A DNA stretch of 64,000 bases from Candidatus Latescibacterota bacterium (GTDB lineage: Bacteria > Latescibacterota > UBA2968 > UBA8231), in assembly GCA_965248355.1 (NCBI GenBank), contig OZ252098.1:4160001-4224000 (forward strand). The letters are read 5' to 3'. A program made the translations under genes and the position numbers. Position 1 is the stretch's first letter. Each line of letters begins with the position of its first letter. The notes under the pieces are model-generated. The model saw only the letters and a list, made by a program, of their open reading frames with translations, was not told the origin of the DNA and searched no databases. Shown one piece after another: positions 22,759-28,189 of this stretch.

Positions 22759-23692
22759 TTACGCTTCCGCTTCGATTTCGTCGATGAGTTCCTTGAGACG
22801 AGCATAGTTCGTCCGCATCGCATCGACGGGGGAACCACCGGGGGGACGGAAATGGGTCGCCACCGCCAGCACCGCGTCGCATCGGTAGTCGCGCAATTGA
22901 CGCAGGACCGCTCTGAAATCCACATCCCCATCGCCGATGGGACGGTACTCGAATTGCAGATGCTCACCATCGGCGAGGTGCAGGTCCTTTGATGTGGAGC
23001 CCGTGCAGATATGGCCGCACATTGTCGAAACCGGCAGAGGTCACATCCGCCTCGCCGCAGTTGAGGTTGTCGGCCGGACCCCACATGACCTTGATTCTCG
23101 GTGAGCCGACGCTTTCCGCAACGCGCCGGAAGTTCCCGGTCGTGTTGGTGTAATTCCAGGGCATCATGGAGAGGGCAACATCGACGTCGTATTTCTCGGC
23201 TTGCTCCACGACCAGCGAGAACGCCTTCACCAGTTTCTCCATATCCGCATCGGCGATGATGCCACCGCGGGTGTGCCAGCGCATCGGCCAAGTGGGCTTG
23301 CCGCCGCCGTACTCCCCGGGCCAGGCAAAGGTGAACGAACAGACAGCGCCGACTCCCAGGCGGGAGGCGATCTGCATCGCGCGGACCAGATTGTCGAAGT
23401 CACAGCGGAATTCCGGATGCTCCTGCATCCCATCCAGGTCGAGCTCGGTCAGGTGCACCTTCTTGAACGAGTTTTCCGCCGCTATGAGGTGGAGCTTGAG
23501 GCCGTGGTTGGACACGCGGGCAGCCATGTCGTCTACCTGGGCATCGGTCATTTCGGCGATCGGGGTCTCATCGCGCAAGCGCGGGAACCAGACGTACTCG
23601 GCACCGATATCCTTCGCCGTAGCCAGGGCCTGGTCAAAGGGCAGGTCCAATTCGGGTAAGTACATGCCGAGCTTGAACCGGTAATCTGCCAT
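22759..23692 (-). pseudogene. Sugar phosphate isomerase/epimerase (xylose isomerase-like TIM barrel), frameshifted
   Basis: HGLHIK continues in a second frame as DLHL...PIGDGDVDF; extra A at ~22988-22990. The TAA stop abuts the intron 1 3' end. Confidence 0.8.
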
Positions 23693-23811
23693 CAGTTACC
23701 TCCTGAACGTAGTGGGTGAAGACGCCGATCAGGTCGCAATTGCTCCCTCCTGTTCAAGCTAGCGTTTGAAATTGAATCGCCCCGAGTTTTCCGGAGACTC
23801 GGTTGTTTGAG

Positions 23812-24717
23812 TCAAGCCACCATGGCTTGAGTATCCTGCTGATAGTAGTGCAGCTGCTCGAACTCGACGGGCGGGATGTTGCCGATGGGCTCGAGTAACC
23901 GCCGGTTGTTAAACCAGTCCACCCACTCCAGGGTCGCAAACTCGACGTGTTCGACATTTCGCCAGGGTCCGCAGCGACGAATGACTTCAGTCTTGAACAG
24001 GCCGATGATCGTCTCGGCCAGCGCGTTGTCGTAGGAATCGCCGACGCTCCCGACCGAGGATTCGACTCCAGCCTCGAGGAGACGCTCCGTGTACCGAATA
24101 CTGAGATATTGCACGCCGCGATCGCTATGATGCACAAGTCGACTGCTCTCGGGCCGGGCGTGCAGGGCCTGCTCTAGGGCGTCCAGCGCCAAGTCGCTCC
24201 GCAATGTGGCCGAAGCACGCCAGCCCACGATCATGCGTGAGAAAGCGTCGATGACGAAGGCGACGTATACAAATCCGGACCAGCTGGCGACGTACGTCAG
24301 ATCGGCCAACCACAACCGGTTGGGCTGTTCGGCGGTGAAGTCGCGCTCGACCAGGTCAGCTGGACGTGAAGCGCTTCCGTCAGCGACTGTTGTCACCTTG
24401 AAGGATCGACCTCGTGTGGCACCCTGAAGCCCCATCTGGCGCATTAGACGCTCGATCGTGCATCGGGCAACCTTGTGCCCTTCGCGCAGGAGCTGGAGCC
24501 AGACCTTGCGGGCGCCGTAGACCTGGAAGTTGTCGTTCCAGATCCGCTCGATCTCGTCGCGCAGGATCGCATCACGACGAACACGGGGTGGTAAACCCGA
24601 GGGATCGGCCTGTCGAGCTTTGTGCTCGTAGTATGTGGACGGGGCTATCGGCAGGATCTTGCAAATGGGCTCGACCCCGTACTCGTCACGCTCCTTGTCG
24701 ACGAAGGCCACCATCAC
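23812..24717 (-). CDS. IS3 transposase OrfB (DDE integrase core)
   Basis: [17 protein letters not shown] and [11 protein letters not shown] motifs. Confidence 0.93.
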
Positions 24718-25034
24718 TTCGGTCGGCGGTCGAGCTCCGCCTGAGCGAAAAAAGCCGAGGCCTTGCGAAGGATCTCATTCGTGCGCCGCAGCTCACGGAC
24801 TTCACGCTCCAGGTCCTTGATCCGGGCTCTCTCGTCGCTGGTCACGCCGTCTCGGCGGCCCGTGTCGACCTCGGCCCGGCGCACCCACTTGCGGAGCGTC
24901 TCAGCAGTGCAGCCGATCTTGGCCGCGATCGAGCAGATGGCCGCCCACTGAGAGTCGTACTCACTCCCGTGCTCGAACACCATCCGGACCGCCCGCTCGC
25001 GTACCTCTGGGGAATATCTCTTTGGATGTGCCAT
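24714..25034 (-). CDS. IS3 transposase OrfA (HTH-leucine zipper)
   Basis: [19 protein letters not shown] and [13 protein letters not shown] motifs. Confidence 0.92.
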
Positions 25035-26766: not shown

Positions 26767-27014
26767 TAAGTGGTTGATTGCGTTACGTGGTCCGGCAGCG
26801 GTGACCCGACGAAGATGATGTCGACATCGCTGCCCAGGAGATCCTCGAACCGGGTATAGGCCTGGGGAATATTGTACCTGTCGGCGATGGGCCGAACGGT
26901 CTCTTCGTGGCGGGTGCAGAACGCCGCCACCTCCGTCTCCGGCATCACCCTGAAACACTGGAGTGCCCCTTCCCCGCGCTTGCCCACGAATCCGACCTTG
27001 AGTGGCAGGTTCAT
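26767..27014 (-). pseudogene. Gfo/Idh/MocA oxidoreductase N-terminal fragment truncated by ISAzo13
   Basis: LKVGFVG...YTRFEDLL..DVDIIFVGSP..H, ending at the IS boundary. Confidence 0.8.
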
Positions 27015-28048
27015 CAGACGTTGTCTCCAAACTGTTCGATGCTGGCCGGCAACTCGCCATCGGGCAGGTAGAAGTCCGCGCTCAAATCTACGGCGACCGG
27101 CTGATTGGTCTGCATCGCTTCCACCGCTTTTTCGACGATGAGCGTGGGGATGCAGGCTTCCCAAACATCCATGGGGCTTTCACCACCGTCAAGGCAGTAC
27201 TTCGCAAACATCTCCATCTCTTCATCGAAGCCGTTGTGATAGGCATTCTCTTCGATGCCAGGCTCATCGGTTCCCTGGAAGATGAGATTGCCAAAGCGGA
27301 CGGTCGCGGCGCTGATCGGTCCGGCCATGACCTCGGCGTAATGCTTGGGCAGATATCCACCCTGGCCGACGACGCCGTACACGGAGGTGGCGAGCCCGCC
27401 GTTGGCGAAACGGATATTGATAGTGCTGGTGTTGCTCGGTTCACCACCGTACCCCATGGCGTTGATTTCGACCGGCTGTGAACGCATGACATGCCAGATC
27501 CAGTGGAGGTTGTAACCGGCCGCATCGAGTACGCCATTGCACCCCAGGGGCCCCTCGGGATCATTCGGTTTGGCGTTCTCGTAGCGCGTGCTCGAGAGTC
27601 GGCACAGGAACAGGACGAAATACGGTTGAGGGATGACCTCGCGCAGTCGTTTGGTAACCGGTGAGTGTTTGAACCACCAGCCACCCATGAGCTTGACTCC
27701 TGACTCGTGGACGGCCTGCTGCAGACGCCGGGCTTCGTCGAGGGTGATGGCCAACGGTTTCTCGGCGTAGATGTGCTTGCCGGCGGCGCAGGCGTCGATC
27801 GCTATCTCGGCGTGGGTATCGTGAGTCGAGAAGATGAGGACCGCATCGATGGAATCGTCCGCGAGGACGCGCTCCATGTCGGTGGTGTGGTAGGAGGCGC
27901 CGTACTCCTCCGCACGACGTCGAGCAGCCTCTTCCGAGATGTCCATGGTGGCGACCAGGTGCATGTCGGGTGACTCGAGCACCCTTGGCAGGTGGGCGCC
28001 GCTTATTCCGCCGCAGCCGATGGCGGCCACATTGAGACGGGTGGTCAT
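27014..28048 (-). CDS. Gfo/Idh/MocA oxidoreductase
   Basis: IGCGGI, AGKHIYAEKPLA. Confidence 0.9.
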   Translation of the reverse strand: MTTRLNVAAIGCGGISGAHLPRVLESPDMHLVATMDISEEAARRRAEEYGASYHTTDMERVLADDSIDAVLIFSTHDTHAEIAIDACAAGKHIYAEKPLAITLDEARRLQQAVHESGVKLMGGWWFKHSPVTKRLREVIPQPYFVLFLCRLSSTRYENAKPNDPEGPLGCNGVLDAAGYNLHWIWHVMRSQPVEINAMGYGGEPSNTSTINIRFANGGLATSVYGVVGQGGYLPKHYAEVMAGPISAATVRFGNLIFQGTDEPGIEENAYHNGFDEEMEMFAKYCLDGGESPMDVWEACIPTLIVEKAVEAMQTNQPVAVDLSADFYLPDGELPASIEQFGDNV

Positions 28049-28189
28049 GACAGCTCCGTGCGCCGGCTAAACCGGCGAGGTGTAAGATGTGAGAGTCATC
28101 TGTGTCGAAGGTGTAGCGAACCACGACAGCCCCGAGTCATGCGTCGCGTCGGGTAACCGACGAGGCGAAGCGTTGGCAGGGGGAGGTGT

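Follow-up and report, generated by a model that had tools for sequence, protein, structure and literature searches.

How does a fragment of a foreign operon come to lie inside a chromosomal gene, bracketed by two group II introns and cut exactly between a stop codon and the ribosome-binding site (RBS) behind it? A locus in the genome of a Candidatus Latescibacterota bacterium (GenBank assembly GCA_965248355.1, contig OZ252098.1) raises this question. The genome is complete, in one contig of 5.5 Mb, and we analysed a stretch of 64,000 nucleotides from it (positions 4,160,001 to 4,224,000 of the forward strand; hereafter the window, whose own numbering is used throughout). Here a Gfo/Idh/MocA gene, the host gene, is interrupted by a group II intron (A), a 5.3-kb segment of other genes (the cargo) and a second group II intron (B). 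We find that the host gene and the operon behind the cargo are each restored when the respective ends are joined, that uninterrupted versions of both exist in other genomes, and that the introns belong to a family with a marked preference for sites antisense to RBSs. The best and simplest explanation, unproven and in our estimation moderately probable, is a Campbell-type integration of a circular donor by one reciprocal exchange between two introns.

Ancestral junctions of the cargo and the host gene

The cargo occupies positions 22759–28057, and its edges coincide exactly with both intron boundaries. Read on the minus strand, its left edge is GAAGCG-TAA, the stop codon of an isomerase gene (TAA at 22761–22759): positions 22860 to 22759 read ...ATCGAAGCGGAAGCGTAA, the end of an open reading frame (ORF) for a xylose-isomerase-like TIM barrel (Pfam PF01261), and the terminus itself reads ...GAAGCGTAA. 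The right edge on the same strand is GGAGCTGTC-ATG, the RBS (28057–28049) and start codon of an oxidoreductase gene; positions 28057 to 27990 read GGAGCTGTCATGACCACC..., the start of ORF 27014–28048, and the cargo on this side begins with GGAGCTGTCATG, that is, RBS plus start. Joining the two ends gives isomerase-TAA|GGAG-oxidoreductase. A first-pass annotation of the window, made from the sequence alone, had described these ends correctly to the base and had proposed that joining them rebuilds the stop–RBS–start junction of an operon ordered isomerase-Gfo-Gfo; both the junction and the order recur in homologous operons.

One such operon lies in a genome of another genus of the same family (G020, contig C135), where isomerase-gaagaaTAAGGAGatatgccgATG-oxidoreductase-Gfo2 follow in a row, Gfo2 being a second Gfo/Idh/MocA gene, with the TAA|GGAG junction between the first two. 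Amino acid identities to the window by tblastn are 82% and 73% for the isomerase (two frames), 85% for the oxidoreductase and 78% for residues 1–89 of Gfo2, and window segments 22764–23695 and 26785–28036 map to adjoining segments of G020 DNA with their order swapped. The annotation had suggested looking for further operons with the isomerase directly upstream of this oxidoreductase, and they are common. We examined 62 loci with oxidoreductase relatives (53 in species-representative genomes, 9 in metagenomes), which are partly non-independent, as one (L061) is the G020 contig and many come from related Poribacteria and Chloroflexota metagenome-assembled genomes (MAGs): an isomerase homologue lies at most 100 nt upstream on the same strand in 44 of the 62, farther upstream in two (217 and 2982 nt), and none is present upstream in the other 16. 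The isomerase stop codon is fused to the Shine–Dalgarno sequence, as TAAGGAG, in 14 of 42 junctions analysed.

Two of these loci were considered as possible traces of an intron and rejected. In a Poribacteria MAG (L076, 7015–9998), the ~3 kb that separate isomerase and oxidoreductase contain extra ORFs, including a second one of 344 aa, and no intron RNA; the locus with the best oxidoreductase match (L060) has no upstream isomerase, its homology stops at GGAG, and we read it as the start of an operon. The oxidoreductase relatives (L060–L112, 54–86% identity), mostly with an isomerase upstream, come from Latescibacterota, Gemmatimonadaceae, Poribacteria, Chloroflexota and Dehalococcoidia MAGs, which suggests that the gene pair has spread laterally and widely.

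On the host side, the 5′ exon (20751–20820, plus strand) comprises the first 23 codons and one further nucleotide of the gene and ends in ...CATGGGCGGCCTCC, and the 3′ exon (32747–33825, plus strand) comprises the remainder; joined at 20820|32747, they restore the gene. The joined product is 89–91% identical in amino acid sequence to its orthologues in three genomes of the same genus (G002, G006 and G007), without a gap at the joint. The gene is uninterrupted in all three (the three fetched), and around CTCC|TCGAGGA the DNA of the joined window sequence does not differ from that of G006. Collinear synteny with all three relatives extends over ~7.4–8 kb on the left, up to 20820–20823, and over ~7.3–7.7 kb on the right, from 32746 to at least 40018. 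The 11.9-kb block sits at one point of this conserved locus, with neither duplication nor loss of host DNA. As the flanks are collinear with three relatives and the genome holds no second copy or remainder of the cargo, an origin by double inversion or intrachromosomal duplication is ruled out.

The insertion is precise at both levels, for the whole composite when compared with the three empty-site genomes and for its inner ends when compared with the G020 junction. As after Campbell-type integration, the outer flanks adjoin directly in recipients without the insert, and donor-like operons have the inner ends side by side. A composite transposon does not describe the arrangement, since the flanking elements are introns and 20820|32747 closes without duplication; nor does a twintron, an intron inside an intron, since both introns are complete and the DNA between them is former exon (isomerase stop, oxidoreductase RBS). 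Because the joined cargo ends match the junction of homologous operons and the outer flanks match the uninterrupted gene of relatives, the agreement at the cargo ends goes beyond chance, and these sequence comparisons establish that the cargo is a real operon in circularly permuted form, opened between TAA and GGAG.

The oxidoreductase at one end of the cargo (27014–28057, minus strand; ORF 28048–27014) is an intact Gfo/Idh/MocA gene (PF01408, E 1.3e-24). Next to it stand the first ~81 codons of Gfo2 (26770–27014, minus strand; PF01408, E 3.3e-5), the remainder of which is absent from both the window and the genome (no further high-identity match). The gene at the other end, for a sugar-phosphate isomerase/epimerase of the xylose-isomerase-like TIM-barrel type (22759–23692, minus strand; PF01261 on both ORF pieces), is a pseudogene with a one-base frameshift near 22988, seen as two overlapping tblastn segments. 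The far ends of the operon join within an IS3/vsr/ISAzo13 cluster, where the annotation had placed the closure of the circle, at rearranged insertion sequence (IS) elements. The IS3-family element (23773–25085, minus strand; Pfam HTH_Tnp_1 and rve) has 39-nt imperfect terminal inverted repeats, includes an ALIL frameshift pseudoknot (RF01497, 24640–24756), lacks a target-site duplication (AAT versus CTC) and has no further copy in the genome. A fragment of vsr, which encodes a very-short-patch mismatch endonuclease (25201–25464, plus strand; PF03852, E 3.5e-17, profile positions 16–71 of 74), is cut on its 3′ side by an ISAzo13-family element (25470–26766, minus strand; PF07592, E 2.1e-135), on the other side of which lies the truncated Gfo2. 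Seven further places in the genome match this element at 94–99.9%, two of them parts of one interrupted copy. It has TAA on both sides (25467–25469 and 26767–26769); 3-nt TWA words flank the ISAzo13-type elements of this genome and agree on both sides in five of the six copies examined, and as there are only two usual words, matching flanks are weak evidence for a simple insertion. The convergence of two truncated genes on the element indicates that it marks a deletion or a recombination between IS copies, and with genes truncated on both its sides the original insert or circle was probably larger than the present cargo.

By the same kind of comparison the cargo is foreign: the oxidoreductase has no close homologue in nine other genomes of the genus, where the best full-length match is ~28–29% identical (the closest proteins, at 85% and 86% amino acid identity, are in G020 and in a Gemmatimonadaceae MAG), the G+C content of the cargo genes is 0.58–0.64 versus 0.67–0.72 in the flanks, and the rest of Gfo2 is missing from the genome. 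A search of a plasmid collection with the cargo gave only partial IS3 matches at 70–77% identity and was uninformative.

The two introns and the target sites of their family

Intron A (20821–22758, plus strand) is 1938 nt long, begins with GTGCG, ends in CTACTCCGAC and carries a reverse transcriptase (RT) ORF from 21141 with a C-terminal frameshift near 22546, its tail being out of frame relative to intron B and to an intron copy in a genome of the same genus (G004). Intron B (28058–32746, plus strand) has the same GTGCG at 28058 and the same terminal sequence at 32746; it measures 1934 nt once two IS elements are removed, and its RT ORF is intact to 32689. These elements, one of IS256/Mutator type (28190–29585, with the 8-nt duplication GGAGGTGT) and one of IS3 type (29874–31221, with the 3-nt duplication GCC), have copies elsewhere in the genome at 99–100% identity. 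After their removal the introns can be aligned over their full length, and they stand in direct orientation, as direct repeats. Rfam group II intron RNA matches lie at 20855–21080, 28092–28222 and 29576–29721, all on the plus strand, with RF02005 scoring 174.9 bits for intron A and 88.2 and 83 bits for the two pieces of intron B, and the RT domain PF00078 (RVT_1) is found at E 8.3e-39 in A and E 9e-37 in B. Folding of the last 81 nt gives, for both introns, a domain-5-like hairpin whose first bases are AGC and a domain-6 hairpin in which an A bulges out 8 nt before the end; Rfam at E ≤ 1 gives no match at the 3′ end of intron A (the domain 5–domain 6 region), where the boundary rests on fold and homology. 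A repeat search and a search of the genome itself found these two copies and no further one. Because intron A has a frameshift in its RT gene and two IS elements interrupt domain 1 of intron B, present-day splicing or mobility of either intron appears doubtful.

We compared 15 distinct 5′ junctions of the intron family, those of A and B (window stretches 20806–20820 and 28043–28057) and 13 from other genomes (L220, L226, L038, L037, L222, L227, L054, L221, L224, L040, L053, L046 and L041). All 15 have CAT 11–18 nt upstream of the insertion point, for which chance is ~0.17 per site by our own arithmetic; CTCC lies inside the last 6 nt before the insertion in 11, and the remaining four represent one shared site ending in CCTTTCT or CCTTCCT. 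Since the pattern of CAT plus CTCC is the reverse complement of a Shine–Dalgarno sequence plus start codon, the family is, judged by its junctions, one that inserts antisense just upstream of RBSs. The G004 copy, 93.8% identical to intron A, sits at a third such site (...CGTCATGGTCTCTCC|T). The annotation had already placed an intron antisense in the RBS of the cargo operon, and an insertion between TAA and GGAG fits this family-wide target; the host-gene site, CATGGGCGGCCTCC|T, imitates it on the coding strand (CAT-N7-CTCC|T). As host and cargo sites are both ordinary targets, two independent intron insertions are plausible. Excerpts of the Creative Commons (CC)-licensed PMC and bioRxiv literature describe no intron family that targets RBSs in antisense, which is not proof of absence.

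By alignment reading, a candidate exon-binding sequence 1 (EBS1; GGAGG or GGAGA) in a loop near intron nt 200 resembles a Shine–Dalgarno sequence. Pairing of EBS1 with intron-binding sequence 1, tried as a means of assigning each intron to its exon, was not discriminating: both loops pair at 6/7 positions with the host exon and at 4/7 with the cargo exon.

Origin of the composite insertion

Both the host exons and the two cargo ends were formerly continuous, so two sites that each held an intron must have exchanged partners. In the reading that we favour, the donor (a plasmid or excised element, most likely) would have been circular DNA bearing the isomerase-oxidoreductase-Gfo2 operon with an intron inserted between the isomerase stop codon TAA and the oxidoreductase Shine–Dalgarno sequence GGAG. 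A related intron of the same family would have lain in sense orientation 23 codons into the chromosomal Gfo/Idh/MocA gene, and one reciprocal exchange between the two introns would have integrated the circle, giving the order 5′ exon, A, isomerase to oxidoreductase, B, 3′ exon. The donor would have to be circular or tandem, because a single exchange with a linear fragment carrying the intron between the two operon ends would break the chromosome. If the exchange was homologous recombination, the crossover would most likely fall in the 5′ ~90 nt of the intron, within a 53-nt block identical in A and B. Decay would have followed, with IS-associated deletions leaving the truncated Gfo2 and vsr, frameshifts arising in the isomerase and the RT gene of intron A, and two IS elements entering intron B. 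From the arrangement we infer the circle, homologous recombination as the mechanism of exchange, and the order of these events.

Contigs from other runs (the comparison is of contigs only) bear on the assembly and on this order. Without a differing letter, contigs of run X19, which may be the source sample of the window, bridge the junction of 5′ exon and intron A (20032–20863) and that of oxidoreductase and intron B (27215–28123), and a contig of run X23 bridges intron A and isomerase (21675–23776) with 5 differing letters in 2.1 kb; among the contigs listed, none bridges intron B and the 3′ exon. Run X23, which run X1 resembles, is otherwise unlike the window, its host flanks having 85 differing letters over 19822–20749 and 42 over 32903–34000. 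It contains intron A in pieces, nt 127–805 and nt 855 to the end, the latter joined to the isomerase. This last contig lacks the extra bases at 22546 (RT tail) and 22988 (isomerase), so the window copy is the decayed one, and its last 40 letters mismatch the window beyond the IS3 end (23776); the X23 oxidoreductase contig stops at the ISAzo13 end (26767). An intron A joined to the isomerase stop without the IS3 element or a host flank supports the view that an intron was already in the operon before its arrival in the window's genome. The attachment of this A-type intron to the isomerase also means that a crossover by homologous recombination would lie within the first 126 nt.

Several observations weigh against integration by intron exchange. 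Introns A and B are identical at only 1685 of 1938 positions (86.9%). Their differences are biased towards synonymous sites, with a synonymous divergence (dS) of ~0.34 and a nonsynonymous-to-synonymous ratio (dN/dS) of ~0.34 over the RT ORF in a rough alignment, values that are to be used with caution and for A versus B only, those involving G004 being unreliable because frames differ upstream; and the alignment reads as paired changes between A and B in the stem at nt 90–108. Divergence, synonymous bias and paired changes together show that A and B were distinct lineages before they met, and recombination between them would have been homeologous and inefficient. A reciprocal crossover is expected to leave complementary mosaics in both repeats. 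At the 253 positions where A and B differ, the G004 copy matches A in 186 cases, B in 48 and neither in 19; the longest B-agreeing run is 3, no breakpoint model beats the absence of a breakpoint, and A-like agreement spans the markers from nt 10 to nt 1917 without a switch. The 53-nt block, at nt 37–89, is the longest that A and B share, and four weak hairpin-loop markers upstream of it include three A-like and no B-like ones. G004 alone served as the third copy, and the test is blind to a crossover in nt 1–89 or to descent of the G004 copy from A; the absence of a mosaic thus leaves either of these, or no intron crossover at all. Intron searches covered 76 genomes of the family with intron A and 168 genomes of the phylum for B-type introns, and among the 168 no independent B-type intron was found, the closest to B being 86% (G004) and 73–77% (G046 and G047) identical. 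Run X23, whose host joint 20818>32749 is empty, contains the cargo and an A-type intron together with a B-like intron that lacks the IS3 insert; elsewhere, therefore, intron B is independent of this host site. Among the joints listed for the contigs (15 of 102 in the joint table, plus 10 with intervening letters), neither a circle nor an excision joint appears. The first-pass annotation had likewise proposed a circle integrated Campbell-style by intron–intron recombination; of this, the permutation and topology hold; homologous exchange inside the introns, given their 86.9% identity and the lack of a switch relative to G004, is a proposal, as is the circle, of which the joints listed give no sign.

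Whole, non-mosaic introns would be expected if A, cargo and B had travelled together as one composite retroelement, transcribed through, excised by pairing the 5′ splice site of A with the 3′ site of B so that the internal 'exon' was skipped, reverse-spliced into the host CTCC|T and copied into DNA. The insert fills a single host point without duplication or loss, as one intron would, and in X23 the cargo contigs and the A-type and B-like introns have similar depth (16–19) while the host site is empty, as could be the case if the unit resided elsewhere there. We nevertheless think this unlikely: an RT that lacks an endonuclease domain would have to copy an RNA of at least 8 kb, the introns should each splice alone, the interior differs in X23 (contigs diverge at 23776 and stop at 26767), and neither the genome nor the 168 genomes of the phylum hold a second insertion site of the unit. 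The permutation, too, needs an explanation of its own and would have to be older, having arisen perhaps when two different introns entered the two identical TAA|GGAG sites of a tandem or dimeric donor. That two introns of the same family can bracket and mobilise ordinary genes as a giant 'intron', retrohoming into RBS-like CTCC|T sites, seems to us quite doubtful.

The introns might also have come last. An intron-free circular cargo could have joined the host by microhomology within the shared CTCCT, the two introns entering the hybrid junctions later and independently; both junctions retain CTCC|T (the 5′ exon target with T at +1), the candidate EBS1 of intron A (GGAGG) pairs, by alignment reading, with CCTCC of the host 5′ exon, and whole introns of two lineages would be accounted for. 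This is very improbable, as a rare recombination would have to hit the exact insertion point in both partners and be followed by two independent insertions, and the X23 contig with intron A already at the isomerase stop shows that the intron was there before the cargo arrived. Group II RTs are known to switch templates end to end, and an RT copying intron B at the host site might have switched to the 3′ end of an RNA of intron A and cargo, such as a splicing intermediate of a circular donor transcript. Exact junctions and non-mosaic introns would follow, but how intron A came to abut the host 5′ exon so precisely at its own 5′ end would be left unexplained, a long cDNA would be needed, and the joint of oxidoreductase and intron B has no non-templated nucleotides; we give this only a slim chance. 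An assembler misled by ~1.9-kb intron repeats on both sides of the segment is the least credible source of the arrangement, with next to no probability, given that the copies differ at 13% of positions and that the X19 and X23 contigs bridge three of the four junctions, though X19 may be the source sample and the fourth junction is bridged by none of the contigs listed.

Comparison with known systems and other features of the window

In Campbell-type integration of phages and plasmids, and likewise in IS-mediated cointegrates and translocatable units, a single crossover inserts a circle. Translocatable units are the subject of PMC5024762. This locus shares with such systems the flanking direct repeats, an insert permuted relative to its donor and outer flanks that are contiguous in empty-site relatives; unlike them, it has a group II intron as the repeat in place of an att site or IS, no recombinase or transposase at its ends and no target duplication. 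Twintrons and introns with cargo in domain IV also have extra DNA between 5′ and 3′ intron-insertion ends, but at this locus the DNA in the middle ends in former exons and is flanked by two introns that are both complete, with a 5′ end, domains 5 and 6 and an RT gene apiece; the cargo is not nested in domain IV of a single intron.

For lactococcal relaxase genes, recombination between intron copies that left junctions exactly at the intron site, and so shuffled exons at the DNA level, was inferred by LaRoche-Johnston et al. 2020 (PMC7947834); the products there are single chimeric genes, and the introns are near-identical and occupy equivalent positions in homologous genes. The present locus, by contrast, retains both reciprocal products in cis, joins two unrelated sites, one in a coding sequence and the other at an intergenic RBS, involves introns with 13% divergence and has captured a fragment of a foreign operon. 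Wolbachia is reportedly the subject of related work by Leclercq and colleagues in 2011, to which the lactococcal study refers. Targetrons have been used to place recombination substrates, as excerpts describe for GETR (PMC3792343) and for intron-anchored deletion in Clostridium (PMC3031624). There, as at this locus, introns at two sites supply the sequences by which DNA is inserted, deleted or moved; the targetron systems, so far as these excerpts go, carry lox sites or homology arms as cargo and depend on laboratory selection, whereas this locus is natural and the intron bodies themselves would be the homology. The excerpts of the CC-licensed PMC and bioRxiv literature also describe no Campbell-type integration through bacterial group II introns, again without proving absence. 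The locus belongs, as a natural variant, with known cases of recombination mediated by introns; within the literature searched, seen in part, no earlier case was found with both reciprocal junctions retained and a foreign operon captured.

Group II introns are usually viewed as selfish inserts whose effect on the genome is local. At this locus both products of the exchange are kept, which allows the event to be reconstructed base by base. On the integration reading, introns at unrelated sites can act as portable homology, by which foreign genes enter a chromosome that is not homologous to them, a route of gene capture needing neither integrase nor transposase. The antisense-RBS preference offers the family thousands of potential landing sites and hence many potential recombination partners. 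Were it true that the unit moves whole, it would be a new kind of cargo-carrying retroelement, the counterpart of a composite transposon.

Around the host gene, the window also contains several diverged paralogues (65–81% nucleotide identity) of an ORF of ~650 aa and of another of ~520 aa, which are conserved in same-genus relatives; they lie at 15499–17529, 35400–37342, 37400–39345 and ~49600–50430, and also at 17578–19188 and 19220–20758. A Pfam scan of the ORFs at 15499–17529, 17578–19188 and 19220–20758 gave no match. Several runs in which small shares of the window occur carry the label of a sponge, coral or seawater metagenome. Farther to the right, a 40-nt hairpin-like repeat occurs in two copies, at 58131–58170 and 58658–58697, which are 527 nt apart and 88% identical.

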